Positions 1,281 through 49,468 of a DNA stretch of 64,000 bases are shown here, piece by piece; position 1 is the stretch's first letter, and each line of letters starts with the position of its first letter. The notes beneath the pieces are model-generated. The model was not told the DNA's origin. It worked only from the letters and a program-made list of their open reading frames with translations, and did not search any database. The stretch spans positions 2,433-66,432 of the forward strand of contig JBDRWD010000007.1 of assembly GCA_039802205.1 (NCBI GenBank), given 5' to 3'. Source of the stretch: a candidate division WOR-3 bacterium. GTDB taxonomy: Bacteria; Hydrothermota; Tepidihabitantia; SM23-42; JAOAFX01. A program made the position numbers and the translations under genes.

Positions 1281-1439
1281 TCGGAAAAAAATAAGATACT
1301 TTCTTGAAACCTTTTTGGTGTTTTGGTGATATACTTAAAAGTGTGGAAATTTTTCTTGAAATTAGAAGAAGAGGGTGTTTTTTTGACTTGACAAATGTAG
1401 ATAGATGGATATAATTTCTCACTAAAAAAGGAGGTTAAG

Positions 1440-2474
1440 TTGAAATTTAAAAAGGCAATAGCCCTGATGATATTTTGGGGAACATTATTAAATCTAATTT
1501 ATGCCGCCCCTCGGGTCGTGGTGGCAGAGATGATCGGTGACGAGACCTGAAGTTCCTGTGCGGCGGCAAGCGGTACGCTTGCGCAGATAGTATTAAACTA
1601 TCCAGGTCGGATTGCCGCTATTGATGTCCATGATAACCCAGCTGATTCATTCTTCCTTCAAGAAGCATACAATAGAATCCGCTATTATTTGCCCCCATTT
1701 TACGGCATGTATATGCATCCTTGGCTCTGGTATGATGGGAATCAACATGGAGGAATGGATTATTCTCAATGGGAATCTGTGATTATTAATCGCTTGAGCC
1801 AACCAGCACCGGTTACAATTTATCTCGATGGTGAATATTCGCCCGGAAGTAATTCTGGAACTATTTATGCGACATTTAAGAATGATTCAACCGCAACAAT
1901 CAATGGCCGGGTGATTTTTGTCATAACTGAAGATAGCCTATTTTATCCAGCACCCAATGGAGCATTATGGCATAGTAATGTGCCCAGGGATTATATTCCG
2001 GACCATAATGGCGTGCTTGTTTCAATTCCCCCTGGCGATTCAATAACGGTAACCATGCCTTTTACCACCCATCCCAACTGGAATAAATCGCATTGTAAGA
2101 TCAAAACCTGGATTCAAAACGATGTGATGTTACCGGATTCCACAAAAGAAATCTGGCAGGGTGCGATAGTTAATCTACTTGAACTCGGTATTGAAGAAAA
2201 TCCAGGCAAGAAGTGTGAAAAATTAAGTCTACAGGTTTTCCCCAACCCCTGTCCGCGCACCGATGCCCTGCACTTCTATTTTCCATATCCAACCGACTAC
2301 AAAATTTCAATATATGACTGTACCGGAAGGGAGATAAAGAATATTTCAGGTAATGCCAAATCGGTTAAATGGAATTTAAAAAACAACCAAGGGTATAAAG
2401 TTAAACCCGGTGTTTATTTTTACCGTTTTGTAGATAAAAAAATAATTTTTTCTGGTAAATGTGTAATTGAGTAG
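1440..2474 (+). CDS. secreted thioredoxin-fold protein with T9SS C-terminal sorting domain; in-frame TGA at 1548-1550 read as selenocysteine in a U-S-S-C (UxxC) motif
   Basis: TTG start at 1440 is preceded by AAGGAGG and gives the signal peptide LKFKKAIALMIFWGTLLNLIYAAP. The frame stays open across TGA 1548 into the tracked ORF 1689..2474 (same frame, no other stops). The context VVVAEMIGDET-U-SSCAAASGTLAQIVLNYPGRIAAIDVH has the beta-CxxC-alpha-beta thioredoxin layout. The C-terminus ..KPGVYFYRFVDKKIIFSGKCVIE is a Por/T9SS CTD. A paralog of 6860..7858 keeps the TGA at the equivalent position. Confidence 0.6.
1566..1582 (+). promoter_or_regulatory. putative bacterial SECIS hairpin (GCAAGC-GGUAC-GCUUGC) 15 nt downstream of UGA 1548
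   Basis: Perfect 6-bp stem with a 5-nt apical loop containing GU. The spacing from UGA is within the bacterial SECIS range. Confidence 0.5.
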
Positions 2475-2532
2475 AAGAAGGTTAAATACGAAAGACTCTA
2501 TTGGAAAATTGATTATGAGCAAAGGGGATATT

Positions 2533-4440
2533 ATGAAAATGTTGATTCCCATTTTTTTAATGATAGGTTTGGTTAGCGCTGGTAATTGGTTGGTTAATGG
2601 TGATTTTGAAGAAGCGCTTAACACCGGTTGGACTTCAACCCAGAGCGGCTCATATATCTACATTGACCGTGCAATAACCTATGAACCGGACCCGGATTAT
2701 GAAGTGCGGGTGGAAAAAGGCTCAGGCAATGGGTTTGCAACACTTTCTCAGACTATTGATATTACGACACCGAGTGAATTTACTTTTTCTACAAAGGCAA
2801 AGTTATATGCATATGATAATAATGCAGATACTCTGACTTACGCTGCCGCAGCAATAAGAATAGTTTACCGTAATGCCACGGGCGCACTTCTTGGAGAAAC
2901 CAGAATTTGCCAGTTCACAGCACCTTGTCCCTGGCAAAACACTTCAACAATCCATCTAATAACAGTTAGCGATTCACTCTGGCATAATTATTCATTCAAT
3001 CTCCAGACTGAACTTGGAAATCTTCCCGGCGTCAATCCAGCAAATGTGAAAAAGGTAGAAATTGCGCTCTATGATACAACTGCCCACACTTGTTGAGGGG
3101 CTTCACAATTGGCGAAGGTCTTCGCCGACGACATCAAACTAAATTATAACGGAACCCAGCTTTATCTCACCTTCATCAAAGCAAAAGTTTACGACTCGGG
3201 TGGCAATAACAATGGCCGGTTAGATCCAGGTGAAATCGCAAATATCACTGCATTATTAAAAAATATTGGCGGTGCTAATTTTACCAATCTGAATTCTACA
3301 CTCTCCACGAGCAGTCCTTATATCACTGTTACGGATAACTCGGGTTATTTTGGAACAATACTTATTGATAGCACCAAGGAGAATATTTCGGATCCTTATG
3401 TTGTGCAAGTGAGTCCCTCGACACCTCAAGGCCATATTGCTCAATTTCGTTTGATAGCAACTCAAGGTTCTTTTGTTGATACATTTTTCTTCAACTTGGT
3501 GGTTGGCACATATGATTATCTGGTCTGGAATCCAGATCCAACCCCCGGTTCCGGACAGACAATCCACAATTTATTAACATCCCTTGGCTACGCTGGCTTA
3601 TATTCAACTACCCTCCCGACTACTGAACTCAGCTTCTATCGCGCAATTCTGGTCTGTGTGGGTATCTATCCTAATAATTATATTATCGGTGCATCAAGCC
3701 CTGAGGCAACAGCACTCGTCAACTATGTCAATAGCGGTGGCAGACTCTATCTTGAAGGTGGAGATGTTTGGTATTATGACCCATTAACGGGCGGATATAA
3801 CTTCTGTCCATTATTTGGCATAAACGCAACTGAAGATGGTACGGACGATTTAGGTCCAATTCAAGGGCAACCAGGAACTTTCACCAATCAGATGTACTTC
3901 GGTTATGGTGGTGAGAATTCCTATATGGACCATATCAGCCCCAGTGGTACCGGAGCATTTTTGATCTTTAGAGATGTCGACCAAGGTTATGATTGTGCGG
4001 TAGCGCGTGATGCCGGGACATACCGAACTGTCGGGGCTTCTTTTGAACTTGGTTCTCTGGTTGATGGAAGTGGGGTTTCAACCCGAAGGGCATTGCTCGA
4101 TTCCATCCTCCATTTCTTCGGAATATTCCAGGTGCCTGTTGAAGAGAATAAGCAAGAAGGGCTCCAAAAGATATCTTTCCAGGTAATACCGAATCCATTC
4201 CAGAATAACTGCGTGGTTAAATTCGAAATTCGAAATCCGAAATCCGAAATTTCACTCAAGATTTTTGATGCAACAGGACGGTTGATAAAATCATTTAACC
4301 ATTTAACCAGTTACCAATTTAATAAAATCGTGTGGTCTGGTGACGATGAAATCGGCCGCAAGGTGCCCGCAGGTATTTATTTCGTGCGGTTGGAAACGGA
4401 TGGTCAAAAATATATTGAGAAGGTAATAAAGATAGAATAG
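2533..4440 (+). CDS. large secreted protein with T9SS C-terminal sorting domain; in-frame TGA at 3094-3096 (context TAHTC-U-GAS) joins tracked ORFs 2467..3096 and 3109..4440
   Basis: Both ORFs are in the same frame (coordinate mod 3 = 1). The N-terminal part has a signal peptide (MKMLIPIFLMIGLVSAG) but no CTD. The part after TGA has no signal peptide or ATG (its tracked start is TTG) but ends in a canonical T9SS CTD (..AGIYFVRLETDGQKYIEKVIKIE). The start codon is uncertain; ATG 2515 and ATG 2533 (after AAAGGGGA) are both possible. Confidence 0.5.
3109..3128 (+). promoter_or_regulatory. putative SECIS hairpin (uuGGCGAA-GGUC-UUCGCCga) 14 nt downstream of UGA 3094
   Basis: 6-8 bp stem with a GGUC loop. 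Confidence 0.45.
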
Positions 4441-4448
4441 TTAGAAAT

Positions 4449-4477
4449 CAGGAAGGGAGTATTTATGCTCCCTTCCT
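4449..4477 (+). terminator. Rho-independent terminator-like hairpin after the 2533..4440 gene
   Basis: AGGAAGGGAG-uauuuaug-CUCCCUUCCU, a 9-10 bp stem, followed by GAAAAUCUUUUA. Confidence 0.55.
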
Positions 4478-4520
4478 GAAAATCTTTTATAATGGGACTT
4501 GAGTCTAAAAAGGGGGTTTT

Positions 4521-6809
4521 ATGGGCAGTAAGAAACTTATCTGGATTGTTTTAATTGTCGCCACTGCATCATTTGCCCAGTGGCAGGCAATAGGTCCTTA
4601 TGGTGGCTATGTCCGCTCGGTGGTTGTATCACAAACCAATGACAATATTGTCTATGCCGCATCTTATGCCAATCCCACTGTAGTTGCAAAATCCACTAAT
4701 GGTGGTTCAACCTGGACCACAATGGGTGTAATTCCAAATCAGGCTTATTGTATGGCAATCGACCCAACGAATGATAACAAACTATATGCGGGAAGCGGAC
4801 ATGTAATATATCGTTCAACTGATGGTGGTGTCAATTGGTTATCAACTACTATGAGCAATAAATATATCTATGGCATAGCGGTCCATCCAACAGCACCTAC
4901 AACTATTTGCGCCTCGGGTATGAGCTATACTGGAACAAAATGGGGGCTTGCATTCTTCAAAAGCACGGATTCAGGTGTAAACTGGACAACCACAGTAATC
5001 GACACCTCAGGCTCTTCAAACTATGGATATTGTCTCGCAATTGACCGTACGAATCCCAATACGATTTATGTTGGTGGCTATTCTTATACCACATCTTACA
5101 TACCCAGAATTTACAAATCCACAAATGGAGGCACTAACTGGATAGATGTGTCTACTGATACAGTATTTCAGAACGCTTATTATATTTACTCTATGGCTGT
5201 TCATCCAACGAATTCTAACATAGTCTATGCTGGTACTTATTTAAAAGGTATTATGCGTTCTACTGATGGCGGAAATTCCTGGACAAAGGTTTCCAGCAAT
5301 TACTACAACTACAGTATGGCAACGAGCATAGCATCACCTGATATCGCTTACTCTGGTTGTTATGGTGAGGTTTACAAAACGACAAATGCCGGAGTGTCCT
5401 GGACATCGGTAAGTTCAGGTTTGAGTGGAACTTCCTTCTATGGCCTTGCCGCAAGTGCACAGAATGCTTCTAATGTATATGCTGGAAATAACAAAGGTAT
5501 GTTTAAGACAACAACCGGCGGGTCTTCCTGGGTAAGTATCAATAACAATTTGAATATGGGTTCAATCCTCTCTTTTGCCAACGCGCCTTCTTCACCTTCA
5601 ACAATCTATACTTCCTTTGCTGAAGTTGGTGTATTCAAAACCACGAATTCGGGAAGCGACTGGATTCAATTACCTACGCCGGTTGGTTGTGGCAATATTT
5701 GCGAATTTGCGGTTGCTTATAACAATCCTAATATCATATATGCCTTAGAAGGAAGTGGTTGAGGGAACGCCGAGCTCTACAAGAGCACAGACGGCGGGTC
5801 CGTCTGGTCAAATGCGTTAGATGCATTTTATGTCGATGGTGGTGCAATGGCAATCGATCCGAATAATAGCTCAGTCCTTTATACCGGCGGATACATATAC
5901 AACGGTTCAACTTATGTAATGGTAGTCTCAAAATCTACTGATGGTGGCACAACCTGGGAAAGGGATACGCTAACAACTGATTATTGTATGTGCTATGCAC
6001 TTGCTATAGACCGGAGTAATTCCAATGTTGTTTATGCCGGTGGCTATAATGGTTATCTCTTCAAGACTACCAACGGCGGTATTACCTGGACTCTCTCCAA
6101 TACAGGACTAAGTGGGACAGTTTATGATATAAAAATTGGCTCAACCAAGGCAAACACCGTTTATGCAGGGACTTCTTCTGGTGTTTACAAATCAACGAAT
6201 GCTGGTGCAAGCTGGACAAGTACCGGTCTATCAGCAAATGTCCAGGCAGTCTTGATAAATCCTTCAAATGAAAATGAAATATATGCCGCAACGAGTAATG
6301 GTATCTACAAGAGCACTACTGGCGGTGGTGGCTGGACATTGATGAATACTGGGCTATTAAATACAAATACAACTTCTTTAGGAATTTACCCAAATAACTG
6401 GTTGTTCTGCGGGACAAATGGCACAGGAATGTATCGATGGAATATACAAGTTGGCGCGGAAGAATTTGAGGAGATTGGGAAGAGTATCTCCTTGCAGATC
6501 ACACCGAATCCATTCAGGAACTACTGCGTAGTTAAATTCCAAATCCCAAGCACCAAATCCCGAATTCCAAACAAATCCGCAATCCGCAATCCGAAATCCG
6601 AAATTTCTTTGAGGATCTATGATATTTCGGGTCGCGTTGTTAAGTCATTTAATCTTGAATCCTGTATCCTGAATCATGAATCCAGTATCGCCTGGTCGGG
6701 TGACGATAAGATGGGTCGCAAGGTGCCTGCGGGTATCTACTTTGTGCAACTTGATTCTGGTGAGTTCACTAAAATTGAGAAAGTAATTCTACTTAAAGGA
6801 AATAATTAG
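4521..6809 (+). CDS. BNR/Asp-box repeat (sialidase-like beta-propeller) secreted protein with T9SS C-terminal sorting domain; in-frame TGA at 5760-5762 (context ALEGSG-U-GNAELYKSTDGG) joins tracked ORFs 4521..5762 and 5847..6809
   Basis: Both ORFs are in the same frame (mod 3 = 0). S-x-D-G-G-x-x-W Asp-box repeats continue straight across the TGA. The first part has a signal peptide (MGSKKLIWIVLIVATASFAQW). The second part lacks an RBS or start, and its first ATG is 84 nt downstream. It ends in a T9SS CTD (..AGIYFVQLDSGEFTKIEKVILLK). Confidence 0.45.
5788..5806 (+). promoter_or_regulatory. candidate SECIS hairpin (CAGACGG-CGGGU-CCGUCUG) 25 nt downstream of UGA 5760
   Basis: 7-bp perfect stem with GU in the apical loop. 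The spacing is longer than in the other three cases. Confidence 0.35.
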
Positions 6810-6859
6810 TTCTTGACATAAGCTAAAAAATAAGTAAAATTTTAGTGAAAGGGGGTTTT

Positions 6860-7858
6860 ATGTCAAAATACTTATTATTACTGCTGGGCATTTCACTGCT
6901 CGGTTTTTCTGCCCAGCGGGTGGTTTTGTGTGAAGAGTTCTATCAAGAGGGCTGACCATCCTGTCCTGCAGCCAGCAGTACGCTGGACAATATCTGTGTT
7001 CAATATTCCACGCGCATTGCTGCGATTGAGATGCATCTTTCCAGCAGTTATCCGCTGTACTGTCCTGAAGCATATGCCCGGATGCAATACTACCCAAGTT
7101 CAAACTGGTATACGCCCAATCTTATCCTTGATGGCACACCAAGAGGAAGCAGTTATAGCTCCTGGCAATCATACATTGTTACACGGATGAATCAACCTGC
7201 ACCGATGCGTATCTCAATGTGGGGGACTTATGGCTCTGGTTCTGGCACAATCTATGCCCGATTCCGTAATGATTCAACTGCCTCAGTTACTGCCTATGTC
7301 TATTTTGTTATTACTGAAGATAGCCTCTATTATGTTACTCCATACGGTGACCAGTGGCATAATCATGTTGCACGCGATTATGTCCCAAACCAAATCGGCC
7401 AACAAGTGACAATTCCAGCGGGTGATTCAGTAACAGTCTCGCAAAATTTCACAATCCAATCAGGCTGGAATGTCAATCGCTGCAACATTGTAACCTGGAT
7501 ACAGAATAATTCCACACGCGAAGTGTATCAGGCAGCATTTATCAAAGTAACGGACTTGACAGGAGTTGAAGAAACGAATAAGGCAACTGGAATATCAACA
7601 ATTTCCTCCATTCCCAATCCTTGCGTCAATGGTACAACATTCCAGTTTAATGTTAGTAAAGATGGTAAATGGAAACTTTTGCTATATGACGCCTTGGGTC
7701 GCGAGATTCAGCGATTTGAAGGAATCGGTCAGGGTGGTATTCAGACTGTCGAATGGAATCTTTTTGACAATAATAACCATCGGGTAAAACCGGGTGTTTA
7801 CTTCTACCAGCTCCTCGGTCCGGACTTGAAGGCAAACGGCAAGATCGTGGTAAGGTAA
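6860..7858 (+). CDS. secreted thioredoxin-fold protein with T9SS C-terminal sorting domain; in-frame TGA at 6953-6955 read as selenocysteine in a U-P-S-C (UxxC) motif; paralog of 1440..2474
   Basis: ATG 6860 after AAAGGGGG gives the signal peptide MSKYLLLLLGISLLGFSAQ. The frame is open across TGA 6953 into tracked ORF 7031..7858 (same frame, mod 3 = 2). The context VVLCEEFYQEG-U-PSCPAASSTLDNICVQYSTRIAAIEMH aligns with the paralog VVVAEMIGDET-U-SSCAAASGTLAQIV..RIAAIDVH. The CTD is ..KPGVYFYQLLGPDLKANGKIVVR. Confidence 0.6.
6972..6986 (+). promoter_or_regulatory. putative SECIS hairpin (CCAGC-AGUAC-GCUGG) 16 nt downstream of UGA 6953
   Basis: 5-bp stem with an AGUAC loop. Relative to the paralog hairpin (GCAAGC/GCUUGC, loop GGUAC) the stem has compensatory changes while the loop keeps GUAC. 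Confidence 0.5.
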
Positions 7859-7888
7859 ATCCCAGGAAAAACTTTAAACCCAAGACCA

Positions 7889-7920
7889 GAGAGGCGTGGT
7901 GCTAACCGCGCCTCTCTGCT
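7889..7920 (+). terminator. terminator-like hairpin after 6860..7858
   Basis: AGAGAGGCG-(12 nt loop)-CGCCUCUCU, a 9-bp stem. The tail is not strongly U-rich. Confidence 0.35.
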
Positions 7921-8111
7921 GTATTCTACCCACCTACGAAGCGGGGTTATTTTATCTGTAGAGGCATTGAAAAATTTTATCATTGAATTAAGAGTCTCCT
8001 GTTCAGGCTAAATTGTAAAATCTAAACAAATTGCTGATATCCTCTGACTTTAAAACCCATTTTCGTAAGAGTTCTAAGCCCGCTTTTAGGAGGCTTCTTC
8101 TTTTAATATCC

Positions 8112-8195
8112 TCAAATTTTTTCTGCTATGTGCCATTTTTGGTTGTGTTTTTCCCAAGCCTTTCTAACTGCTTTTGATTGTTTCTTATTTTTCAT
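8112..8195 (-). CDS. possible small basic protein (27 aa, MKNKKQSKAVRKAWEKHNQKWHIAEKI)
   Basis: A strong RBS AAAGGAGAT sits 5 nt upstream of ATG in an otherwise empty 530-bp intergenic gap. It is below the ORF-track size cutoff and there is no homology evidence. Confidence 0.25.
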   Translation of the reverse strand: MKNKKQSKAVRKAWEKHNQKWHIAEKI

Positions 8196-8390
8196 TTTCT
8201 ATCTCCTTTCGTCCTCGAGTCCTTGCCGATCCATCTATGATAGTGTAACAAGTTTTCTACATTTTTGGTGATATGGCAAATTAGAATGTTAAATTCACGA
8301 AGTTTGTCGTATTCTCACAACACTCGTCTATTTGAAAATAGGTCTTATTCGCAAATACAATTTTTCAGAGGCTATATTCATAAACTTCTC

Positions 8391-8801
8391 TCATTCTAAT
8401 TTTTCGCCACAATTCCAGCAATATATCGCATCTCCTGGAACATCTTTTTTACAATTACTACAAGTAAAATCTGATTTCTTCTCCACATTGCTCAAGTCCT
8501 TGTTGCACATATTGCAGATTTTTTTATTGGTTTTTGTACCACAGTATGGGCAAAATTTTATATTTGAAGTCTGTTGAGGTAAATCTTCTTTTTCTTTGAC
8601 TTTCTTTTCAGGAGTGTTTATATCACCCGCAATCGTTTGGCGACCACAAACAAATAATATGCCTAATAATATTCCAACTATGGGACTAAAGAGGACGCTG
8701 TTCCAAAAGCCTTTTGAATACGAAAGACCCACATTTTTCCATGCATTAGCAACAACAAGACATAGTAGCAACCAAAGTAAAATAATTATAAGAATTAACA
8801 T
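8391..8801 (-). CDS. membrane protein with C-terminal double zinc-ribbon (CPYCG..CNMC, CSNC..CWNCG)
   Basis: 136-aa ORF with two N-terminal TM helices and a Cys4 x2 C-terminus. Confidence 0.55.
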   Translation of the reverse strand: MLILIIILLWLLLCLVVANAWKNVGLSYSKGFWNSVLFSPIVGILLGILFVCGRQTIAGDINTPEKKVKEKEDLPQQTSNIKFCPYCGTKTNKKICNMCNKDLSNVEKKSDFTCSNCKKDVPGDAIYCWNCGEKLE

Positions 8802-8829
8802 ACAAAATTGTATATATAATTTAATAAAA

Positions 8830-8835
8830 AGTCAA
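8830..8835 (-). promoter_or_regulatory. candidate -35 box (TTGACT) for 8391..8801 at the gene-proximal edge of repeat copy A
   Basis: GGCTCAGACC-N9-TTGACT arrangement is shared with copy B. Confidence 0.3.
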
Positions 8836-8840
8836 GGTGG

Positions 8841-9130
8841 AAAGGGTCTGAGCCTTCTCTACTTTTTGTCAAATTATTTTTATGCGCTGGATTATTAGGG
8901 GTAGCCGCGCCCTTCAGGGTGCGAGATATTCTGGGATGTAAAAAGATTTATCCGCAGGCTAAAGCCTGCGCCTACCATTTTACCGGTTACCACCCAAGGA
9001 CTTCAGGTTGGCTTTTTTATTTAAGCAAGGCTAAAGCCTTGCCCTACAAAAATCCCAACGCTAAATTATTGATGACCCTTTCAAATCTTGCCCATGGGTT
9101 TTATCGTTCCTTCATAAGATATAAAAATAT
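8841..9130. repeat. structured intergenic repeat element, copy A (second copy at 51731..51935)
   Basis: Roughly 80-90% identity to copy B over ~200 nt (GGTCTGAGCC..AAATTATTTTTATGCGC..GGTAGCCGCrCCCTTCAGGGTGCGArAT..ATTTATCCGCAGGCTAAAGCCTGC..CCCTACAAAAATCCCAAC..TTGCCCATG..TTTTATCGT). Copy A carries an extra ~70-nt inserted hairpin module (CAAGGC-UAAA-GCCUUG). Confidence 0.65.
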
Positions 9131-9286
9131 GGAGAGAACTCAGTTTAGAAATCGGGTTGTTTAATAAAAATAGAATATCTTATCCAGATAATTAAAATGT
9201 GATATACTATATCCAAAAAGTGTCTATGATCACAATAGCCATTCCTGGGGAGGTATACATTAGAGGAGCCAAAAGAGAAACGCAAA

Positions 9287-9311
9287 CCTAAAGGTTTGCC
9301 CTACATTGTAA
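9287..9311 (-). terminator. Rho-independent terminator downstream of msrB
   Basis: On the minus strand: GCAAACC-UUUA-GGUUUGC followed by GUUUCUCUUUUGG. It shares the UAAA/UUUA-loop hairpin module of the repeat family. Confidence 0.5.
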
Positions 9312-9323
9312 AATTACCTAATT

Positions 9324-9698
9324 TTAATCCGGCACGAAAATCAGAGAAATTGAGTTTACACAATGGCGGACATTCTTTTCGGTGAAGCCTTCGCCTTCAA
9401 AGACATGGCCTAAATGGGCACCGCAGTTTGCACACTGTATCTCAATCCTGATACCATCAGGGTCTGGAACTCTTTTCACCGCACCCTTTATCTCTTCATC
9501 AAAACTGGGCCAGCCGCACCCGGATTTGAATTTTGCCTCAGAGCGATAAAGCGGTGCATTACATCTTTTGCAATGATAAGTGCCCTTTTGAAAAAAATCA
9601 TTGTATTCACCGCTGAATGGCGGCTCTGTCCCTTTATGAATGATTACCCATTCTTCGGCTCTGGTGAGTTTTCGGAATTTTTTATTTGTGTTGTCCAT
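9324..9698 (-). CDS. msrB: peptide-methionine (R)-S-oxide reductase MsrB
   Basis: Two CxxC zinc pairs (CKRC.., CANCG) and the catalytic RHCVNS motif. This is the Cys form, not Sec. Confidence 0.9.
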   Translation of the reverse strand: MDNTNKKFRKLTRAEEWVIIHKGTEPPFSGEYNDFFQKGTYHCKRCNAPLYRSEAKFKSGCGWPSFDEEIKGAVKRVPDPDGIRIEIQCANCGAHLGHVFEGEGFTEKNVRHCVNSISLIFVPD

Positions 9699-9838
9699 GT
9701 TATTTCATTATGACAAATTAAATATAAGAAAATTTTTCTTCTTTCACCCCTACCTTAGTCCTCCTCCCTCAAGGGGGAGGAAAAAGAAAAGGGGTCTGCC
9801 ATCAGGGGGAGGAGAAAGGGAAGCTGGATATAATTTAT

Positions 9839-12800
9839 TCAATCCTTCACTCTTTCAGGCATACAGGTCTTAGAGACACGACACAGGATATCATCAATTA
9901 TTGTGTAAACAACCGGAATGAGAATGAGTGATACAAAGATACTGAAGGTCATACCGCCAATGAATGCACTTGCCAGTGCCTTTAATGATTCGCCACCACC
10001 ACCGATATTTAAGGCAAGGAACAGAGAGCCGAAGATTGTGGTCAATGAGGTCATCATCACTGGACGGAATCGCTTTTCACCTGCCTCAATTATCGCCTTG
10101 TTTCTTTCTACATTCTTTTCTCTTCGTGATACAACATAATCAAGCAAGAGTATCGCATTATCCGTTACGATTCCAGAAAGAATGATTGCCGATAAGAAAG
10201 AAGACAGATTTAATTCATTGCCCGTGAGCACGAGTCCAGCAAAAAATCCGGTTATGGAAAATGGCACAGAGAGGATTATTACAAAGGGCAAGGTCAGGCT
10301 ATTGAATTGGACACCCATCACCATATACACCAGAATTATTGCAATGATAAGGGCAATACCAAGTGTCTTGAAACTCTCGGCAATCGCCCGATTTGCCCCT
10401 CGCTGTTCAATATTGTATCCATCAGGCAGTTTGAATTCATTTATTATCCATTCAACAATTTTACGATTCTCACGGGCATTCGTGCCCGGTGCAAAACTAC
10501 CGGTAATGTTTACCGAACGTCTTTGATTTATCCGCACAATCTCGGATGGTGATTCACCTTCCTGAAGCACGCCCAGACTTTTGAGCGGCACAACCCCTGC
10601 CAGGGGTGTCGCAACCGGCAGGTTGGCAATGTCACGGAGGGTGAATTTTTCCGCATTAGCAATAACAAGTTCCACATCAATATCCTTATCATCCTTGCGA
10701 TAGGTGGTAACGACCTCACCGGATTTGGCAATCCGCAATGTCTGGGCAAGGGCAAATGCTGAAATCCCTGTAGCAGAAAGTCTCATTCGGTCCGGAATAA
10801 ATACGAATGCGGGCAAACCCCGAGCCAGATTACTCTTTATATATAAAAAGTTTTTCTCGCTTCGCAATGCAGAAGCAAGACGGCTACCAAGTTCACGCAG
10901 GGTATCAAGGTTATCACCGAAGATATTTATATCAATATCCTCGCGCCTCACGCCGACCGTAGCATCAATCACCCGCACAACAAATGTTGGTTCGGTAAAT
11001 GATTCAAGAATTTTTTTGGCATCCGCCATAACTTCACGCACCGGCCTTTTCTTTTCGGTATAGACATTTATTGTAGCACTATACGGTTGGGGCGTACCGA
11101 AGAATGGGTCTTCTCCAACGATGGAAGAGACCTTTGCTACACCATTCAAATTCAACAATGCCTTCTCTAATTTCATTACTTCATTGTTACAATGTTCTAA
11201 TGAAGTTCCACGGGGATATTCAAGGACGATCTGAAACTCACCTTCATCAGTGGCGGCAATCAGACCGGTCTTCACAAAACTGGCAAGAATAAAGCCAATG
11301 ACCAGTAAAAAGACAAATATGAAAACCGTAATCAAACGGTGTCTTAAAACCTTTTCCAGAAGATTTTTATATCCATTTCTCATCATCGTTTCCAGATTCA
11401 AAAACCAGCGGTTAAACTGAAATTTTGGCGGTTCGGGTTTCAATAAGAAATAACTCAATATCGGGACAATTGTTACTGCAATGATGATTGAAATGCTCAA
11501 TGAGAATACAACGGTCAGGGCAAGTTCGCCGAGCAAAACCTTGGCAAATCCCTGGGTAAAAGCAAGGGGTAAAAATACGACTATCGTCGTAATGACACCG
11601 GCGCTTATTGCCAGACCTACTTCCCGTGTTGATTCCACAACCATTTCTAATTTTGAACCGGAAAAATCTTTATCCCGCAAATGCCGGAAGATATTCTCCA
11701 TCACCACGATTGAGGCATCTACAATCAAACCAGTAGCAAGGGATAATCCACCAATAGAGATCGTATTGAGCGAAAGATTGAAGACCTTCATAAAGATAAA
11801 GGTGATTATGATAGTAATCGGGATTGATATCACAATGACGAGGGTGTTTCTAATCCTGCCTAAAAATAAAAGTATCACGAGCGATGCCAGCAATGCACCT
11901 AAAATGCCCGAAATGACCACATCTTTAAGGGCATTAAGAATTACATTGGATTCGTCTTTGATGACCTGAATCTTTATATCCGAAGGCAATTTATCTTTAT
12001 TTTCTTTGAGCCATTTTTTCACTCCCTGCGCAACCTGGACTGAATTGCCATTGCTCGGTTTGCGCACCAGGATTCCTACCGCATTATTTAGATTCAAACG
12101 AGCAAAACGCGTCTGCAATTTTTCAATACTATAAACCTTTGCAATATCACCAATCCTGATCGTCCTGCCGCCGGCAACCGTGATGTATTCATTCTTGATA
12201 TCTTCTATGGATTGATAACTTCCTTTCAGACGTAATGAAAATACATGCTGACCACTCTTTATTTCACCGATTGGAAAATCAATGTTACCACTGCTTAAGG
12301 CGAGGGCAATCTGATTTAAGCCGATACCGGTTTCGTATAAACGGAGTGGGTCAATTTCAACACGAATCACTTCATCTATTCCGCCGGTGACCTTGGCATT
12401 TGCGACACCGGGCAGACGAGCAATTGCCGGCGCAATCCTTTTTTCTACAAATCTTTTCAAATCGGCAAGGTCCCTGGTTTCAGATGTAATAGAAAGTTCA
12501 ACCGGTGGTGGAAGAATGTTACTTATCGTCGTGATTGAAGGAGTTGTGGCATTCCTGGGCAATTGTCCTTTTATGAGGTCAATCTTTTCCTGGAGTTCAC
12601 GCTGTTTTTTTTCTATATTCACACCGAACGCATAATTTACAATGATCTGTGAAAAACCTTCTCGGCTCGTGGAGTTGATCTGCTCAATGCCGGAGATAGT
12701 TGAAATCGCTTCTTCAATTGGTTTGGTCAGTTCATTCTCAACAACTTCTGGACTCGCACCAGGATAGGCAGTAATGATTATTGCGGCTGGAACCGAAAAT

Positions 12801-12916
12801 TCTGGATAATAGGAAACCGGCAGGGAAAAGAAACTGATAAAACCAATAATTATTAAGACCCCGGTTATTAAAAGGGTTCCCACATACCTCTGGATAAAAA
12901 AGCGAATCACATTCAT
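9839..12916 (-). CDS. RND multidrug efflux transporter, AcrB/HAE1 family (inner membrane pump)
   Basis: 1025 aa with 12-TM RND architecture. Ends TGA. Confidence 0.9.
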   Translation of the reverse strand: MNVIRFFIQRYVGTLLITGVLIIIGFISFFSLPVSYYPEFSVPAAIIITAYPGASPEVVENELTKPIEEAISTISGIEQINSTSREGFSQIIVNYAFGVNIEKKQRELQEKIDLIKGQLPRNATTPSITTISNILPPPVELSITSETRDLADLKRFVEKRIAPAIARLPGVANAKVTGGIDEVIRVEIDPLRLYETGIGLNQIALALSSGNIDFPIGEIKSGQHVFSLRLKGSYQSIEDIKNEYITVAGGRTIRIGDIAKVYSIEKLQTRFARLNLNNAVGILVRKPSNGNSVQVAQGVKKWLKENKDKLPSDIKIQVIKDESNVILNALKDVVISGILGALLASLVILLFLGRIRNTLVIVISIPITIIITFIFMKVFNLSLNTISIGGLSLATGLIVDASIVVMENIFRHLRDKDFSGSKLEMVVESTREVGLAISAGVITTIVVFLPLAFTQGFAKVLLGELALTVVFSLSISIIIAVTIVPILSYFLLKPEPPKFQFNRWFLNLETMMRNGYKNLLEKVLRHRLITVFIFVFLLVIGFILASFVKTGLIAATDEGEFQIVLEYPRGTSLEHCNNEVMKLEKALLNLNGVAKVSSIVGEDPFFGTPQPYSATINVYTEKKRPVREVMADAKKILESFTEPTFVVRVIDATVGVRREDIDINIFGDNLDTLRELGSRLASALRSEKNFLYIKSNLARGLPAFVFIPDRMRLSATGISAFALAQTLRIAKSGEVVTTYRKDDKDIDVELVIANAEKFTLRDIANLPVATPLAGVVPLKSLGVLQEGESPSEIVRINQRRSVNITGSFAPGTNARENRKIVEWIINEFKLPDGYNIEQRGANRAIAESFKTLGIALIIAIILVYMVMGVQFNSLTLPFVIILSVPFSITGFFAGLVLTGNELNLSSFLSAIILSGIVTDNAILLLDYVVSRREKNVERNKAIIEAGEKRFRPVMMTSLTTIFGSLFLALNIGGGGESLKALASAFIGGMTFSIFVSLILIPVVYTIIDDILCRVSKTCMPERVKD

Positions 12917-12917
12917 A

Positions 12918-13787
12918 TCATTCCTTAATTACATTGACTTTTTGCCCATCAGTTATTCGGTCTGCACCTTCACTGATGATTATTTCATTTTCTTTTAAAC
13001 CACTGACTAAATAGTATTCCTCAGAACGGGATATTATCTGGATTGGTGTAAAGACTGCCTTATCATCTTCTAACTTATATACACCCGTGCCTTTTTCGCT
13101 TAAGTTTACAACCGCTTTTCGAGGAATCACCATACCAGTGCGTGTTGCGACAATGATATGCCCATTCAGGGTCTGACCGATAAGCAAATTGTTTTTGGGA
13201 GTGGCAAGACGACAGACCTGACTTTCTATTGTGACACCACCGGTGGCCGGGTCAACCTGGGGGGCAACAAGGTTTATTTGAACCACGGCAACCGTATCTT
13301 TTTTTCCATCAGTAATCGCAATCCTCTGTTTTGGTTTTACTGAAAAACGCTCTTCACCGAATACCTGCCCCTTGAAATTAAGACAACCGATATCGCCGAC
13401 TTCAAACAATGGCGTCTGGGGATTTATCGTCTTGCCAATATCAATTAAAGACTTCAATACAATACCTCTTATTGGCGATTTTACAGAATATGGCTTAAAC
13501 TCACTACCAGGCACTTCCTGGATAACAGTTGCCAATGTCTGATTTAAAAATACTGTATCACCTTCACGGACAAGAATCTTTTCTACCTTACCTGAAATTT
13601 GAGCAAAGACGCTCACGGCATTTTTCGGCATTATCTTACCTACCACATCAACGACCACAGGTATTGTTGTATCTTTTACCACTGCGGTTTTAACAGAAAC
13701 TACCACTTCAGTAACCTTTTTCTCTTTTCCCTTACAAAAAGGGAAGAGAAATAATAGCATTACTAAAATGATTAATGTTCTTCTCAT
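12918..13787 (-). CDS. efflux RND periplasmic adaptor subunit (MFP/HlyD family), lipoprotein
   Basis: Probable start is ATG 13785-13787 (MRRTLIILVMLLFLFPFC lipobox), 1 nt after the TAG of the upstream pump. The tracked ORF extends to 13823. Confidence 0.75.
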   Translation of the reverse strand: MRRTLIILVMLLFLFPFCKGKEKKVTEVVVSVKTAVVKDTTIPVVVDVVGKIMPKNAVSVFAQISGKVEKILVREGDTVFLNQTLATVIQEVPGSEFKPYSVKSPIRGIVLKSLIDIGKTINPQTPLFEVGDIGCLNFKGQVFGEERFSVKPKQRIAITDGKKDTVAVVQINLVAPQVDPATGGVTIESQVCRLATPKNNLLIGQTLNGHIIVATRTGMVIPRKAVVNLSEKGTGVYKLEDDKAVFTPIQIISRSEEYYLVSGLKENEIIISEGADRITDGQKVNVIKE

Positions 13788-13788
13788 A

Positions 13789-16700
13789 CTACACCCCTTT
13801 TTCACTCTTTGTTCTTTTTTCAATCACCAGATAGATCGTGGGAATGAAGACCAGAGTCAAGAATGTGGCAAAGAGCAAGCCGCCAATAACCGAACGTGCC
13901 ATTGGTGCACGAATTTCACTCCCCGCACCAATACCGAGTGCCATCGGAATTAAACCGAAGATTGTAGTAAGTGCCGTCATCAGAATCGGTCTGAGACGCA
14001 CCCTGCCTGCCTCAATCAATGCATCAACAAGAGGCATCCCATGTTTTCGCCGCAATTGATTTGTATAATCCACATAGACAATGGCATTGTTTACCACAAC
14101 ACCGGCAAGCAATAACAAGCCCATTAAACTCTGCATATTGACGGTCGTATTGGTGAAGAAAAGCATCCATAATACACCGATGATTGCCAGGGGGACTGTG
14201 AACATAATAATAAATGGCTCCCGGAAAGATTCAAACTGCCCGACCATTATAATATAGACAAGGAATATCGCAATAAGGATTACAAAACCGATATCCCTGA
14301 ATGTTGTCTGCATCTCTCTAAATCCACCACCCATTTCAAATTTAAATCCCGGAGGCAGAGGGTATTCTTTTAATATCTTTTGCACATCACGTGCTACACT
14401 ATTCTGATCCCTGCCTTCTACATTGCCGGTGATTTTGACCACCCGGAATGTGTTTTCATGCTCAATCTTCTCCGGTCCGACGGTAACCGTATCAATGAGA
14501 AAGTTTCTCAAAGGCACAACCCCGACCGGTGTTGCAATATTCAGTGCCTTAATCTTCTCCGGTGTATCTTTATATCCCTTTTTGAGCGTAATCCTTATAT
14601 CATATTCCCTTCCCTCAATACGATACTGGGTCGCAACCATCCCTTCAATCTGACTCCTCAAGGCAAGACCAATCTGATAAGGGGTAAGACCAAATTGCAT
14701 TGCCTTGTATCTATCAACGATGAACTGAATCTCAGGCTTACCCTCACTCAAATCCGATTCAATATCAACAAGACCTTTTACTTTTCTTAATTTTTCAATC
14801 AACTCGTCATTGATTCTTTTTGCCTTATCAAGGTCATAGCCGATTATCTTTATTTCAATCGGTTTGCCAGTGCCAAATAAGAAAGACTCCTGGGAGGTGA
14901 AGCGGACGACAAGACCGGGGATGGAATTCAATTTAGGCCGGAGCGCTTTCTGAATATCTTTTACCGAACGGTTGCGCTTTTCTCTATCTACAAGCCCGAT
15001 CCAGATTGTTGCCGCATTTGGACCTGCTCCGCCACCAAAGAGCGCGGAAAGACCGGTGCCTGAGCCAATCGTGATAAAAACATTTTTCATCTCCGGTATT
15101 TCTTTCAGCAGTATCTCTTCTAATTTGATTATTGCTGAATCAGTAGTTGCAAGATTTGTGCCTACAGGCATCTCGGCTTCAATCTGGATCTGCCCCCGGT
15201 CCGGGGATGGTGTGAGTTCAGCGCCGATAAAGAATAAAAGACCTAAACTCAATACAAAGAGCCCACCGGTACCAAAGATTATCCTCTTGCGATGATTCAA
15301 TGCCCAACGGATTATTCTTAGATAGAAATCTTCTATCCTCTTGTAAAATTTCTGGACTGTTCTTTCAATACCACTGAGTTCTGTTTTAATATGTATCAAC
15401 TTTGCCATCAACATCGGCACAATCGTTACTGCCACAAGCAATGACGAGGCAAGGGCAAAGGTCACAGTCCAGGCGATCTGACTGAAAAATATTGACGCAA
15501 ATCCCCGCACCAGAAGCAATGGTAAGAAAACCGCGATCGTGGTCAAGGTTGAGGCGGTGATTGCCATACCAACTTCCTGTGTGCCCAGAACCGATGCCAG
15601 ATCAGGTTCTTCACCCTTTTCCTGTCGGTGCCGATAGATTGCCTCAAACACAACGATTGCACAGTCGACGACCATGCCGATCGCAATCGTCAGACCACCG
15701 AGCGAGACCATATTGATCGTCATATTGAAGATAAACATCATAAAGACCGCAAAGAATACTGTAATAGGAAGTGTGATACCAATTATGAGGGCTGCCCTCA
15801 GATTTCCGAGGAACAAAAAGAGAATTAAAACCGCAAGTATCGCACCGATTATCAGTGTATCCGCAGTGCTACGAATAGAACGATTTATAAAATCTGCCTG
15901 ATTGAAAAATACATCAATACTGACACCCGAGGGTAATTCCTTCTTAATGTTTTCAATCTCTTTTACCACATCATTACAGACCTTTACGGTATTGGCATTC
16001 GTTCTCTTCTGAATAAAACCATATATTGAATTGACCCGATTCGTCCGGGTGATTGAAGTTCTCTCAGATGGACCAAGTTTCACATCTGCAACCTGTTCCA
16101 GTAAAATCGGAATTCCGTTCTTGTTGCCGATCACGGTCTTTCGGATTTCATCAATATTTTTATACTCACCAATCACCCGCAGGGTATATACCTTTGTACC
16201 GGATTCCACCTTGCCCAAAGGAAAATTTATATTCTGGGCACGCAGGATATTCATCACCTGTTCCGGGCTGATCCCCAGACTGATGAGTTTCTCATAATCA
16301 AATTGAATCTGGACCTCGGTCAGAACTCCACTTTCAACAAAGGAAGCAGCAACCCCACCGACCCTTTGGAGTCTATCCGCAATATCATCACCAATCCGGT
16401 CAAGTTCCAGCGGATCAATATCCCCTTTGATGCTGTAAAGTACCACGGGCTGTTGTGATACATCAAATTTAAATATCATCGGTTGCTGGGCATCCTGGGG
16501 CAGATACGGTAATATCAAACCAAGTCTATCACGCACATCATTTGCCGCAGCATCAAGGTCGGTTCCCCAAGTAAATTGTAGCATAATCATTGAAGAGTTC
16601 TCCGAAGAGGTTGAGGTAATCTTTTCAATATTGTTGAGCGTACCAAGAATCTTCTCAAAAGGCTGGGTGATCTGGGTCTCAACCTCCTGCGGTCCCGCAC

Positions 16701-16857
16701 CCTGATAGGTCGTCATCACAACCATCATTGGGAGGGTGATATTGGGGAACAGGTCAACGGGTAATTTGGTTATCGATATTATGCCGAAGACCAGCAACCC
16801 CAAAAAGACCATTGAAATTGTTAGGGGTCTTTTTACAGAAACTTCGGTGATCTTCAT
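13789..16857 (-). CDS. RND multidrug efflux transporter, AcrB/HAE1 family (second pump)
   Basis: 1022 aa, paralogous to 9839..12916. Its start overlaps the upstream gene's stop (ATGA). Confidence 0.9.
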   Translation of the reverse strand: MKITEVSVKRPLTISMVFLGLLVFGIISITKLPVDLFPNITLPMMVVMTTYQGAGPQEVETQITQPFEKILGTLNNIEKITSTSSENSSMIMLQFTWGTDLDAAANDVRDRLGLILPYLPQDAQQPMIFKFDVSQQPVVLYSIKGDIDPLELDRIGDDIADRLQRVGGVAASFVESGVLTEVQIQFDYEKLISLGISPEQVMNILRAQNINFPLGKVESGTKVYTLRVIGEYKNIDEIRKTVIGNKNGIPILLEQVADVKLGPSERTSITRTNRVNSIYGFIQKRTNANTVKVCNDVVKEIENIKKELPSGVSIDVFFNQADFINRSIRSTADTLIIGAILAVLILFLFLGNLRAALIIGITLPITVFFAVFMMFIFNMTINMVSLGGLTIAIGMVVDCAIVVFEAIYRHRQEKGEEPDLASVLGTQEVGMAITASTLTTIAVFLPLLLVRGFASIFFSQIAWTVTFALASSLLVAVTIVPMLMAKLIHIKTELSGIERTVQKFYKRIEDFYLRIIRWALNHRKRIIFGTGGLFVLSLGLLFFIGAELTPSPDRGQIQIEAEMPVGTNLATTDSAIIKLEEILLKEIPEMKNVFITIGSGTGLSALFGGGAGPNAATIWIGLVDREKRNRSVKDIQKALRPKLNSIPGLVVRFTSQESFLFGTGKPIEIKIIGYDLDKAKRINDELIEKLRKVKGLVDIESDLSEGKPEIQFIVDRYKAMQFGLTPYQIGLALRSQIEGMVATQYRIEGREYDIRITLKKGYKDTPEKIKALNIATPVGVVPLRNFLIDTVTVGPEKIEHENTFRVVKITGNVEGRDQNSVARDVQKILKEYPLPPGFKFEMGGGFREMQTTFRDIGFVILIAIFLVYIIMVGQFESFREPFIIMFTVPLAIIGVLWMLFFTNTTVNMQSLMGLLLLAGVVVNNAIVYVDYTNQLRRKHGMPLVDALIEAGRVRLRPILMTALTTIFGLIPMALGIGAGSEIRAPMARSVIGGLLFATFLTLVFIPTIYLVIEKRTKSEKGV

Positions 16858-17735
16858 CTTTCCCTCACAATCGGAATGACCTTTTCACCACCCGCAAGGC
16901 GCTGCTGACCAAGAACAATCACAAGTTCATTTTCATTAAGCCCTTCAATGACTTCTACAAGTTCATCACCAACAAGCCCGATTTTTATCGGTCTTCTTTC
17001 GGCGATGCTGTCTTTATTTACTACAAAGACTGAATTATCGATGAGTGCATCCTTGGAAATTGCAACCGCGCCTTTTTTCTCACTCATCTTGATTGATACC
17101 CTTGCGGTCATCCCGGGTTTTAGATCTGCGACCGGGTTCTGGATAATTCCTTTCACCGCCACGGTCTTGGTCAGCGGGTCGATGATGGGACTGATCTCGC
17201 TTATATAGCCGTTAAACACCTTCTCTGAGACTGCATCAACATTTATAATTATCGGCATATTCACACGGAAACACTGGGCATCTATTTCCGGGACATTGAA
17301 ACTCACCTTTATTCGGGATAAATCAACGACCATCGCCACTGGCATTTGGGGTGCGACAGTCGAACCAACATCTACTAAGATCTTGGCGATTGTGCCACTG
17401 ATTGGAGTGGTGACAGACGCCTCTTCAAAATCAAAACCCACGGTTTCATTGCGCATACCAATTATTTTCTCTCCCTTCTGGACATAGGAGCCTTCTTTGA
17501 CAAATATTTTTGTCACCCGTCCCATTGTCTCTGGAAAGATCTGGACTGTTTTATCCGCAACAAGGGTGCCGATGATGGTGCAGGTCTTCCGGACATCGGA
17601 CTTTTTAACGGAAATTACTTCTACCGTTGGCGGCACCTTTTCCATCTTTGCACCTGTCTGCCTTTTGACAAGGGTCAATCTTAGAACCGCGCCGATTACA
17701 ATAATGATGATAATTGCTATTAAATATCTCTTCAT
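16854..17735 (-). CDS. efflux RND periplasmic adaptor subunit (MFP)
   Basis: 293 aa with an N-terminal TM/signal segment and the beta-barrel/lipoyl architecture typical of AcrA-like adaptors. Confidence 0.8.
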   Translation of the reverse strand: MKRYLIAIIIIIVIGAVLRLTLVKRQTGAKMEKVPPTVEVISVKKSDVRKTCTIIGTLVADKTVQIFPETMGRVTKIFVKEGSYVQKGEKIIGMRNETVGFDFEEASVTTPISGTIAKILVDVGSTVAPQMPVAMVVDLSRIKVSFNVPEIDAQCFRVNMPIIINVDAVSEKVFNGYISEISPIIDPLTKTVAVKGIIQNPVADLKPGMTARVSIKMSEKKGAVAISKDALIDNSVFVVNKDSIAERRPIKIGLVGDELVEVIEGLNENELVIVLGQQRLAGGEKVIPIVRER

Positions 17736-17757
17736 AATAATACCTCCTTAAATTTTA

Positions 17758-18282
17758 TTATAGATGTACGAAGATTCCTAAACATATTGTTATTAATAAT
17801 TCGCAAGAATTGCATTTTTCTATATTACCTCCATTTTCCGATTCTCCAAACTTGAGAAGGCTTTCGCCTTCTTCAATTTCCTCTTTTTTGAAGGGCCTTC
17901 GACTTACTGAAACTTCCCCTCCCTTGAGGGGAGGGGATAAAGGGGAGGGTGACAATTCACTGATTATCACTTCCATCACCCCATCGATATTTCTTAATAC
18001 ATCGTTATTCCAAAATCTTAATACCCTGTATCCTTGTGACCGAAGCCACCTATCCCTTATTTTATCAATCTTGCTCTCAAAATGCCCACTGCCATCAACC
18101 TCAATAATCAATTTTTTCTCAAAACAGACAAAATCCACAATATAGCGTCCTATCATCTGCTGTCTTCGAAATTTTACACCTAATTGTTTATCTCGTATCT
18201 TATACCATAATCTCTTTTCTGCTAAGGTCATATTGCCTCTTAGGCGTTTTAATATTATTTTGTTTCGTGGGGTTAGTTTCAT
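17758..18282 (-). CDS. DUF559 (Vsr-like endonuclease fold) domain protein with unrelated low-complexity C-terminal tail
   Basis: The N-terminal ~110 aa match the DUF559 pattern (..YIVDFVC..IIEVDGSGHF..D..RD..L...G..VLRFWN..V). The C-terminal 60 aa are translated through a G/C palindromic repeat. Confidence 0.65.
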   Translation of the reverse strand: MKLTPRNKIILKRLRGNMTLAEKRLWYKIRDKQLGVKFRRQQMIGRYIVDFVCFEKKLIIEVDGSGHFESKIDKIRDRWLRSQGYRVLRFWNNDVLRNIDGVMEVIISELSPSPLSPPLKGGEVSVSRRPFKKEEIEEGESLLKFGESENGGNIEKCNSCELLITICLGIFVHL

Positions 18283-25258: not shown

Positions 25259-25465
25259 TTGATCATGGCTCAATTTGATAAGATATTATGTCCTTATTGT
25301 CTTTTCAGTGCCAAATATGTGGATCTGGTAGTCAATCCAGAAGGTGATTATATCTGTCCGGAATGCAATGCCACATTCTTTTATGAAGAGATAATGCAGT
25401 TATATGGGTTTACCCAGATGTTTATTAATGCCCGACCAACCGGGCAGGAACCATTTACTCTTTAG
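25259..25465 (+). CDS. small zinc-ribbon protein (CPYC..CPEC)
   Basis: 68-aa ORF with two CxxC pairs. Confidence 0.45.
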   Translation: MIMAQFDKILCPYCLFSAKYVDLVVNPEGDYICPECNATFFYEEIMQLYGFTQMFINARPTGQEPFTL

Positions 25466-49171: not shown

Positions 49172-49468
49172 TATCCGGTCGCGCAACCCCAATTCGCCGA
49201 CAAAACCAGGAACAGCAAGGCAAAGGACTCAGCCCAGGCACCCTTATGACCAGCCCTCTGTCTACTTACCGTTGCTTCCTTCCGGACCTGGCGGGGTTTG
49301 TAGACGGTGCTTTCATAAGACCCGAGCCTCAACGCCCTTTACTCCTTACTGTTGCCCCTGAGATTGCCGGCTCCAAGGGGTCTTCACCCCGCATGAGCGG
49401 ATTTCGGGTCCTCCCATCTTGCGACGGGATTCAGGGCACCGCTAGCTCCCCGTTTAGCACGACCGGAA
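49172..49468 (-). ncRNA. ffs: signal recognition particle RNA, long (Bacillus-type) form with Alu domain
   Basis: Minus-strand GUGCUAAACGGGGAGCUAGCGGUGCCCUGAAUCC matches the B. subtilis scRNA 5' Alu region (GUGCUAAGCGGGGAGGUAGCGGUGCCCUG). The domain IV hallmark CAGGUCCGGAAGGAAGCA is present. An 11-bp terminal helix pairs 5' UCCGGUCGUGC with 3' GCGCGACCGGA. It sits immediately upstream of dnaX, as scr does in Bacillus. Ends are ±10 nt. Confidence 0.85.

Follow-up and report, generated by a model that had tools for sequence, protein, structure and literature searches.

The bacterial selenocysteine (Sec) insertion sequence (SECIS) has a published consensus (bSECISearch; Zhang and Gladyshev 2005, summarised in PMC13188914), in which a stem of 4-16 bp carries a loop of 3-9 nt that has a G within its first two nucleotides (most often as N1-G-[G|U]-N-N2, N1 being paired with N2), while the apical loop lies 16-37 nt from the UGA and the minimum free energy (MFE) is <= -7.5 kcal/mol (PMC13188914). 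Among the proteins described so far, the Omp28-related selenoprotein of model NF045500 is the 'hypothetical protein GOS_C' of the 2008 Global Ocean Sampling (GOS) study (2026 review, PMC13188914), a thioredoxin (Trx)-like UxxC protein (Zhang and Gladyshev 2008, PMC2398784), and other extracytoplasmic Trx-fold selenoproteins include the DsbA-like and DsbG-like proteins and a thiol:disulfide interchange protein (Table 1, PMC13188914). Here we analyze a stretch of 64,000 nt (hereafter the window) from a candidate division WOR-3 bacterium (assembly GCA_039802205.1, contig JBDRWD010000007.1, positions 2,433 to 66,432), in which two paralogous genes each contain an in-frame UGA within a UxxC motif (U, Sec) followed by a short hairpin. 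We consider it very probable that each hairpin is a bacterial SECIS embedded in the coding region for an Omp28-like UxxC protein of the thioredoxin fold; the two paralogs most likely read UGA as selenocysteine, and their sequences point to secreted redox-type proteins of this bacterium. The original prediction, which had proposed a functional RNA element 3' of a Sec-type UGA, is in this respect supported. A literature search returned no paper connecting selenoproteins with the type IX secretion system (T9SS), Omp28, DUF1223 or WOR-3, and the combination of selenocysteine and WOR-3 gave only unrelated papers. The features concerned are listed below, with nucleotides of the hairpins numbered from the U of UGA.

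1440-2474, + strand: gene 1, paralog of the 'MIGDE-U-xxC' type, with a TTG start after GGAGG (from the translation)
1548-1550, + strand: in-frame UGA of gene 1, putative Sec at codon 37 (U of UxxC)
1566-1582, + strand: putative SECIS hairpin of gene 1 (GCAAGC 1566-1571, loop GGUAC 1572-1576, GCUUGC 1577-1582; G26 = 1573, U27 = 1574)
6860-7858, + strand: gene 2, paralog of the 'EEFYQE-U-xxC' type, with an ATG after GGGGG (from the translation)
6953-6955, + strand: in-frame UGA of gene 2, putative Sec at codon 32 (U of UxxC)
6972-6986, + strand: putative SECIS hairpin of gene 2 (CCAGC 6972-6976, loop AGUAC 6977-6981, GCUGG 6982-6986; G26 = 6978, U27 = 6979)

The two UGA contexts, ...VVVAEMIGDET-U-SSCAAASGTLAQIV... 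in gene 1 and ...VVLCEEFYQEG-U-PSCPAASSTLDNIC... in gene 2, are exactly those quoted in the original prediction, and both genes share one architecture: a signal peptide, a strand RVV(V/L)xE, the U-x-x-C motif, an Omp28-like region and a C-terminal T9SS sorting domain. UxxC follows the beta-strand RVVxxE in both proteins, within a Trx-like region. In Pfam, gene 2 matched Omp28 with 55.8 bits (cut-off 34.9) and DUF1223 with 31.1 bits (cut-off 30.7), and gene 1 matched Omp28 with 34.1 bits (cut-off 34.9) as well as Por_Secre_tail, while the sorting domain model TIGR04183 (cut-off 23) scored 36.4 bits for gene 2 and 33.3 bits for gene 1. The signal peptides of both genes are hydrophobic N-termini read from translations, not predictor calls (MSKYLLLLLGISLLGFSA and KKAIALMIFWGTLLNLIYA for genes 1 and 2, respectively); both products thereby combine the N-terminal signal peptide and the Por_Secre_tail C-terminus that define type IX cargo with a type A sorting domain. 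In an AlphaFold2 (AF2) model of the post-UGA part (mean pLDDT 85), alpha/beta elements precede two beta-sandwiches, and a Foldseek search of this model against the PDB gave generic beta-sandwiches only (transglutaminase C-terminal domains, RbmA; TM ~0.3), which is uninformative for the Trx-like part.

The hairpin stems and the 5-nt loops GGUAC (gene 1) and AGUAC (gene 2) were found as originally described, and both hairpins lie within the bounds of all four published bSECIS criteria: the loop is of 5 nt (3 if N1 and N2 pair), the stem of 5-6 (7) bp, the spacing of 21 nt, and the energy of -9.3 kcal/mol for gene 1 (-10.5 when the G25-C29 pair is counted) and -8.0 kcal/mol for gene 2, where the same fold is also the centroid structure. 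Two further statements, namely that the stems differ at every position and that the 15-16 nt after UGA are unrelated, did not withstand inspection. The hairpins occupy the same codon register (loop at nt 25-29), pairs 20:34, 22:32, 23:31 and 24:30 are identical, and 9/15 nucleotides after UGA are shared, including a common UCCUGU coding Ser-Cys. Pair 21:33 is the sole compensatory double change between the window genes (A-U in gene 1, C-G in gene 2), with both sides at synonymous third positions (GCA/GCC for Ala; CUU/CUG for Leu), and pair 19:35 is formed in gene 1 only (G-C vs G.A in gene 2). Accordingly, the argument from structure without sequence conservation fails, the stems being largely identical, and it is the comparative data that support a functional RNA element, namely a SECIS.

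A scan of species-representative genomes yielded 72 loci, and the resulting alignment comprises 71 TGA sites, the two window sites and 69 further alignable sites of WOR-3 and Stahlbacteria (one more was N-masked); four Eisenbacteria sites, kept outside model training, bring the TGA total to 75 including the window. TGA stands at the identical column in all 73 further sites (69 WOR-3/Stahlbacteria, 4 Eisenbacteria), with a signal peptide and RVVxxE upstream in frame, and a hairpin is kept in the same register. Five distant homologs, from Zixibacteria, Cytophagales, Bacteroidales, Melioribacter and Bacteroidetes, carry Cys (CxxC) at the TGA column. No gaps were needed to align the 60 nt starting at each TGA, and the spacing from UGA to loop is 21 nt in 75/75 sites. 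Within the 71-site alignment, pairs 20:34 (C-G) and 22:32 (A-U) are invariant, 23:31 is G-C in 70/71, 21:33 is C-G in 67, A-U in 3 and U-G in 1, and 24:30 is U-A in 40, C-G in 26 and U-G in 2, with 3 mismatches. At 25:29, G-C occurs in 45 sites and A-U in 11, and N1-N2 pairing is possible in 57/71; G26 is invariant (71/71), and position 27 is U in 40, G in 30 and A in 1. Of the 497 cells of helix 19-25/29-35, 90.7% are paired, compared with 84.7% in column shuffles, none of which (0/500) reached the observed value, and sliding one partner by 1-3 nt lowered the paired cells to 18-39%. De novo folding of the alignment with RNAalifold recovered this hairpin alone, with neither a bulged U nor a lower stem conserved.

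Since the stem is coded by a conserved Ala-Ser-x-Thr/Val-Leu and, in the shared register, most stem bases are identical between the window genes, the hairpin could in principle be a functionless by-product of the conserved peptide A-S-G/S-T/V-L, a view that we regard as exceedingly unlikely. Codon choice in the stem is not explained by the amino acids: Ala is coded by GCC in 62/65 cases (95%) vs 21% in the rest of the same genes, Ser by AGY in 71/71 (100%) vs 35%, Leu by CUG in 67/70 (96%) vs 17%, and Thr by ACR in 54/54 vs 49%. Nor does the peptide explain the switches between C-G and U-A at pair 24:30, which fall at synonymous third positions, are coupled as AGC..xxG or AGU..xxA, and arose independently on about 11 occasions. 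When the remainder of the protein was used to build a tree, ~11 changes were counted on either side of this pair, so that the covariation is not a single inherited event. Furthermore, the five Cys-form homologs have neither the hairpin nor the A-S-x-T-L peptide; therefore, the peptide may itself be partly dictated by the RNA, which suggests that the overlapping RNA has partly shaped the protein sequence and not the reverse. The by-product explanation is thus largely refuted, and the alignment represents an unusually clean natural case of RNA structure dictating synonymous codons and even, as it appears, amino acids of the overlapping peptide.

The covariance model R1, built from the WOR-3/Stahlbacteria sites, scored 67.6 bits at gene 1 and 49.4 bits at gene 2, and its best match in each Eisenbacteria locus (63-73% G+C) was the TGA site (4/4), with E-values of 4.3e-07 (L064), 0.0024 (L066), 0.028 (L067) and 0.56 (L065), three of the four below 0.05. 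No match was obtained in the five Cys-form loci. Across the whole window, with filters off, R1 found the two known sites only (next best E = 0.43), and therefore no further copies of this hairpin with its context are present there.

In public databases these genes have a different appearance. The matches found in protein searches are WOR-3 'Omp28-related outer membrane proteins', almost all of which start after the TGA position, as is characteristic when a recoded codon halts the gene caller: the NCBI call for gene 1 covers 1713-2474 only, past the TGA, the database entry for gene 2 (P0001) spans 7031-7858 only, the two downstream open reading frames (ORFs) are annotated as 275 aa and 253 aa, and the GenBank label of the clade is a truncated 'Omp28-related outer membrane protein'. 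Taken at face value, the fact that NCBI and other gene callers annotate the downstream ORF only, together with TGA being the commonest stop codon in the window, would fit a true stop, with the gene starting downstream and the hairpin serving attenuation, mRNA stability or re-initiation. We judge this to be highly unlikely, since, upstream of the codon, 75 sites conserve the reading frame together with the signal peptide and RVVxxE...UxxC. In addition, the ORF 3' of the TGA has the T9SS sorting domain and lacks a signal peptide, which sits 5' of the TGA, so that a downstream start would leave a T9SS cargo devoid of its signal peptide. The Cys at the homologous position in distant homologs and the adjoining selA, selB and tRNA-Sec genes in relatives likewise argue against a genuine stop.

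The meaning of UGA in this genome can be judged from the window itself, which encodes release factor 2 (RF2):

29168-30290, - strand: prfB (RF2), NCBIfam TIGR00020, 455.7 bits vs a cut-off of 370
30206-30200, - strand: +1 frameshift site of prfB, of the classical CUU UGA C form (GGAG..CUU UGA C), by sequence reading

Plain ORF finding on prfB yields the 314-aa downstream part only. TGA terminates 25/49 ORFs of the window and is the commonest stop codon there; given this and an RF2 gene with a UGA frameshift site, UGA is the normal stop and the recoded sites are exceptions. The same two observations rule out a genome-wide reassignment of UGA. In relatives, the Sec machinery was sought by tblastn, using SelA and SelB of E. 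coli as queries and NCBIfam as a second step, and by ARAGORN for the tRNA. A tRNA-SeC(UCA) lies 160 nt downstream of the homolog in L032 (3180-3273) and 140 nt upstream of it in L060 (1766-1859, - strand). Directly downstream of the homolog in L012, selA (524.5 bits, cut-off 267.9) and a partial selB (by best family match) occupy 3257-4991, a selB fragment adjoins the homolog in L045 (73-831, - strand; 275.8 bits vs a cut-off of 242.25), and a partial selB adjoins that in L060 (2-1210). The Sec machinery is therefore physically linked to this gene family in four of the related WOR-3 genomes sampled, which indicates that the lineage decodes Sec; this linkage suggests that the putatively secreted proteins may be principal clients of the Sec system. 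The AIR-synthase-family gene of the window (25465-26439) is purM and not selD.

A rival reading is that, in place of Sec insertion, the hairpin helps an ordinary tRNA for Trp, Cys or Gly to read through the UGA, or that UGA is reassigned. In its favour, sequence alone would be compatible with more than one inserted residue, and one JGI protein of the neighbouring family has W at the TGA position, presumably as a result of a code-4 call. Nevertheless, we find this explanation very unlikely: prfB with its UGA-dependent frameshift and the TGA ends of 25/49 ORFs exclude reassignment throughout the genome, the loop obeys the SelB-type G-[U/G] rule at canonical spacing, and the Sec machinery is linked to the gene in four related genomes. 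Moreover, within a CxxC redox motif the UGA stands for the nucleophilic residue, which is where Sec is usually found.

Several results weigh against the assignment of the hairpins as SECIS elements of selenoprotein genes. No SECIS family reached the Rfam gathering threshold in the window, with no match at E <= 10 in 1400-7100. The window, 64 kb in length, contains no tRNA-Sec, selA or selB, so that the Sec machinery of this genome is deduced from relatives. Both proteins score well under the NF045500 cut-off of 200 bits (gene 2, 61.7; gene 1, 37.3). Finally, the fold z-scores relative to shuffles are not significant, being -1.5 and -1.4 for 31-nt pieces and ~0 for 53-nt pieces, and chance hairpins are frequent: 89 perfect hairpins with a 5-bp stem and a 5-nt loop (1.4 per kb) are found on the + strand of the window, and 10% of its TGA triplets have some 5-bp hairpin beginning 11-26 nt downstream; one at this exact offset follows 7/1270. 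The two-sequence observation is consequently weak, and significance comes from the comparative data.

Taking the hairpins as SECIS elements, a course of events may be proposed by analogy with E. coli fdhF. The ribosome would reach the in-frame UGA with the hairpin, 16-17 nt downstream, still folded. SelB, loaded with GTP and Sec-tRNA(Sec), would use its C-terminal domain to bind the apical loop N-G-[U/G]-N-N, in which G26 is invariant, and would then bring selenocysteine into the A site while RF2 competes for the codon. The resulting full-length pre-protein would comprise, behind its signal peptide, the U-x-x-C redox centre, the Omp28-like beta-sandwich and the T9SS sorting domain. Export would proceed through the Sec translocon and then, by type IX secretion, to the cell surface, where the protein would probably act as a selenol/thiol oxidoreductase. 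What the data show is the conserved UGA with its Sec/Cys pair, the covarying hairpin with its constrained synonymous sites, Sec machinery of the lineage beside the gene, and UGA as a stop codon elsewhere; SelB binding, Sec insertion, surface location and redox function are inferred.

The two genes between the paralogs have a similar organization, each with an in-frame TGA, a signal peptide 5' of it and a T9SS sorting domain 3' of it:

2533-4440, + strand: protein A, with a signal peptide and a 187-aa N-terminal domain, TGA at 3094-3096, and ~440 aa ending in a T9SS sorting domain
3111-3126, + strand: hairpin GGCGAA-GGUC-UUCGCC of protein A, candidate SECIS
4521-6809, + strand: protein B, a BNR-repeat T9SS cargo, with TGA at 5760-5762, possible Sec codon
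5788-5806, + strand: hairpin CAGACGG-CGGGU-CCGUCUG of protein B

In protein A, two annotated ORFs (187 aa with the signal peptide; 443 aa with the T9SS tail and lacking a signal peptide) form one frame, ...HTC-U-GAS..., and the TGA is kept in 26 further sites of 43-84% identity (27 with the window). The hairpin cells are paired in 100%, the loop is GGUC in 27/27, and there are three compensatory pairs, two of which go along with paired substitutions in the protein (K to R with F to L; K to E with F to S). The homologs of the N-terminal domain in the database, 104 in number, are all of ~145-205 aa (most of 186-190), consistent with ending at the TGA. A relative of 30% identity from another lineage (L076 3001-3909) likewise has the TGA with the frame continuing beyond it, and its hairpin GGCGGA-AGUU-UCCGCC lies in the same register. 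In L060 and L045, the Omp28-like UxxC gene is also followed by a homolog of protein A. A search for Cys-form homologs of protein A found none, the lone 'full-length' database protein having W at the site, probably through a code-4 call, and no Pfam or NCBIfam family other than the T9SS domain was matched. Protein A therefore looks like a candidate for an undescribed selenoprotein family without a Cys form. Its C-terminal two thirds are homologous to the non-catalytic part of WOR-3 C25 (gingipain-type) cysteine peptidases (P0183, P0236).

Protein B is BNR/sortilin-like (NCBIfam F510_1955-type glycosylhydrolase, 199 bits) and is split by the TGA as ...EGSG-U-GNAELYKSTDGG..., with the BNR motif resuming right behind the codon; 32 nt downstream there is a hairpin of 7 bp with the loop CGGGU. 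Only four close relatives (L001, L003, L004 and L005) retain the TGA, and other repeats of the same protein carry Gly at this column, so that the case for a further Sec codon in protein B is weak. Whether 1440-7858 is a four-gene island of type-IX-secreted surface proteins, each needing recoding of UGA to Sec, with protein A as an undescribed family in which UGA is apparently universal, is in our estimation an even call. If so, the Sec system of WOR-3 and allied phyla would serve mainly extracellular T9SS cargo, and a selenoprotein family without Cys homologs would have been overlooked, since searches based on Sec/Cys pairs cannot detect it. The same block is present in a sibling assembly of the same WOR-3 species: window 1383-17858 is 99.97% identical to contig JBDRWC010000002.1 of the WOR-3 metagenome-assembled genome GCA_039802165.1 over 16.5 kb (5 mismatches), the window reaching ~1.4 kb past the end of that contig, and in its NCBI record all four genes of the block are split or truncated at the TGA.

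Elsewhere in the window, a gene for MsrB (SelR domain, 147 bits) lies at 9327-9698 on the - strand, 1.5 kb from gene 2, and has no in-frame stop, and a bacterial large signal recognition particle (SRP) RNA (Rfam RF01854, 123 bits) lies at 49179-49462 on the - strand, beside dnaX-like and YbaB-like ORFs.

The hairpins themselves are textbook bacterial SECIS elements and add nothing new on mechanism; their value lies in annotation and biology. An entire clade of Omp28-like genes of WOR-3, Stahlbacteria and Eisenbacteria is publicly annotated as N-terminally truncated proteins without signal peptide and redox centre, the lineage-specific SECIS model could be used for selenoproteome annotation of these uncultured phyla, and the neighbouring genes suggest more undescribed selenoprotein families that may be exported by the same route.

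Compared with the bSECIS model, nothing substantive differs: the window hairpins are short and minimal (5-7 bp), with no extended lower helix, and the UGA lies inside a conserved ORF with Cys at the same column in 5 homologs vs 75 TGA sites. The fdhF SECIS, the SelB-binding mini-hairpin with which a comparison was proposed earlier, is like the window hairpins intragenic and just 3' of an in-frame UGA, with a short G+C-rich upper stem and G then U in the apical loop. According to NC_000913.3, the E. coli fdhF loop GGUC occupies nt 22-25, the G and U being G23 and U24, whereas the window hairpins have a 5-nt loop N-G-U/G-N-N at nt 25-29, place the G-U one codon farther from UGA, lack a conserved bulged U or lower stem, and are unrelated in sequence. 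Compared with both UxxC-gene hairpins, that of protein A, whose loop GGUC is at nt 24-27, comes nearer to fdhF. At the protein level, the window proteins resemble GOS_C/NF045500 in having an N-terminal UxxC in a Trx-like fold followed by an Omp28-like region, and match the profile over 37-272, but gene 2 does better on a non-seleno Omp28 lipoprotein model (75.3 bits), the WOR-3, Eisenbacteria and Cys-form relatives tested all fall below the cut-off (33-62 bits), and the window clade bears a T9SS sorting domain. These scores therefore place it as a separate clade of the same superfamily and not as a member of the curated family. Its members are most likely full-length, T9SS-exported UxxC selenoproteins lying under the curated-model cut-off, and by their sequences they represent a previously unannotated, putatively T9SS-exported clade of the Omp28-like UxxC selenoprotein superfamily. 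With the DsbA-like and DsbG-like selenoproteins they share the signal-peptide-bearing UxxC oxidoreductase type and a SECIS within the ORF, but the window proteins belong to an Omp28/DUF1223-like fold family and their predicted export is by type IX secretion.

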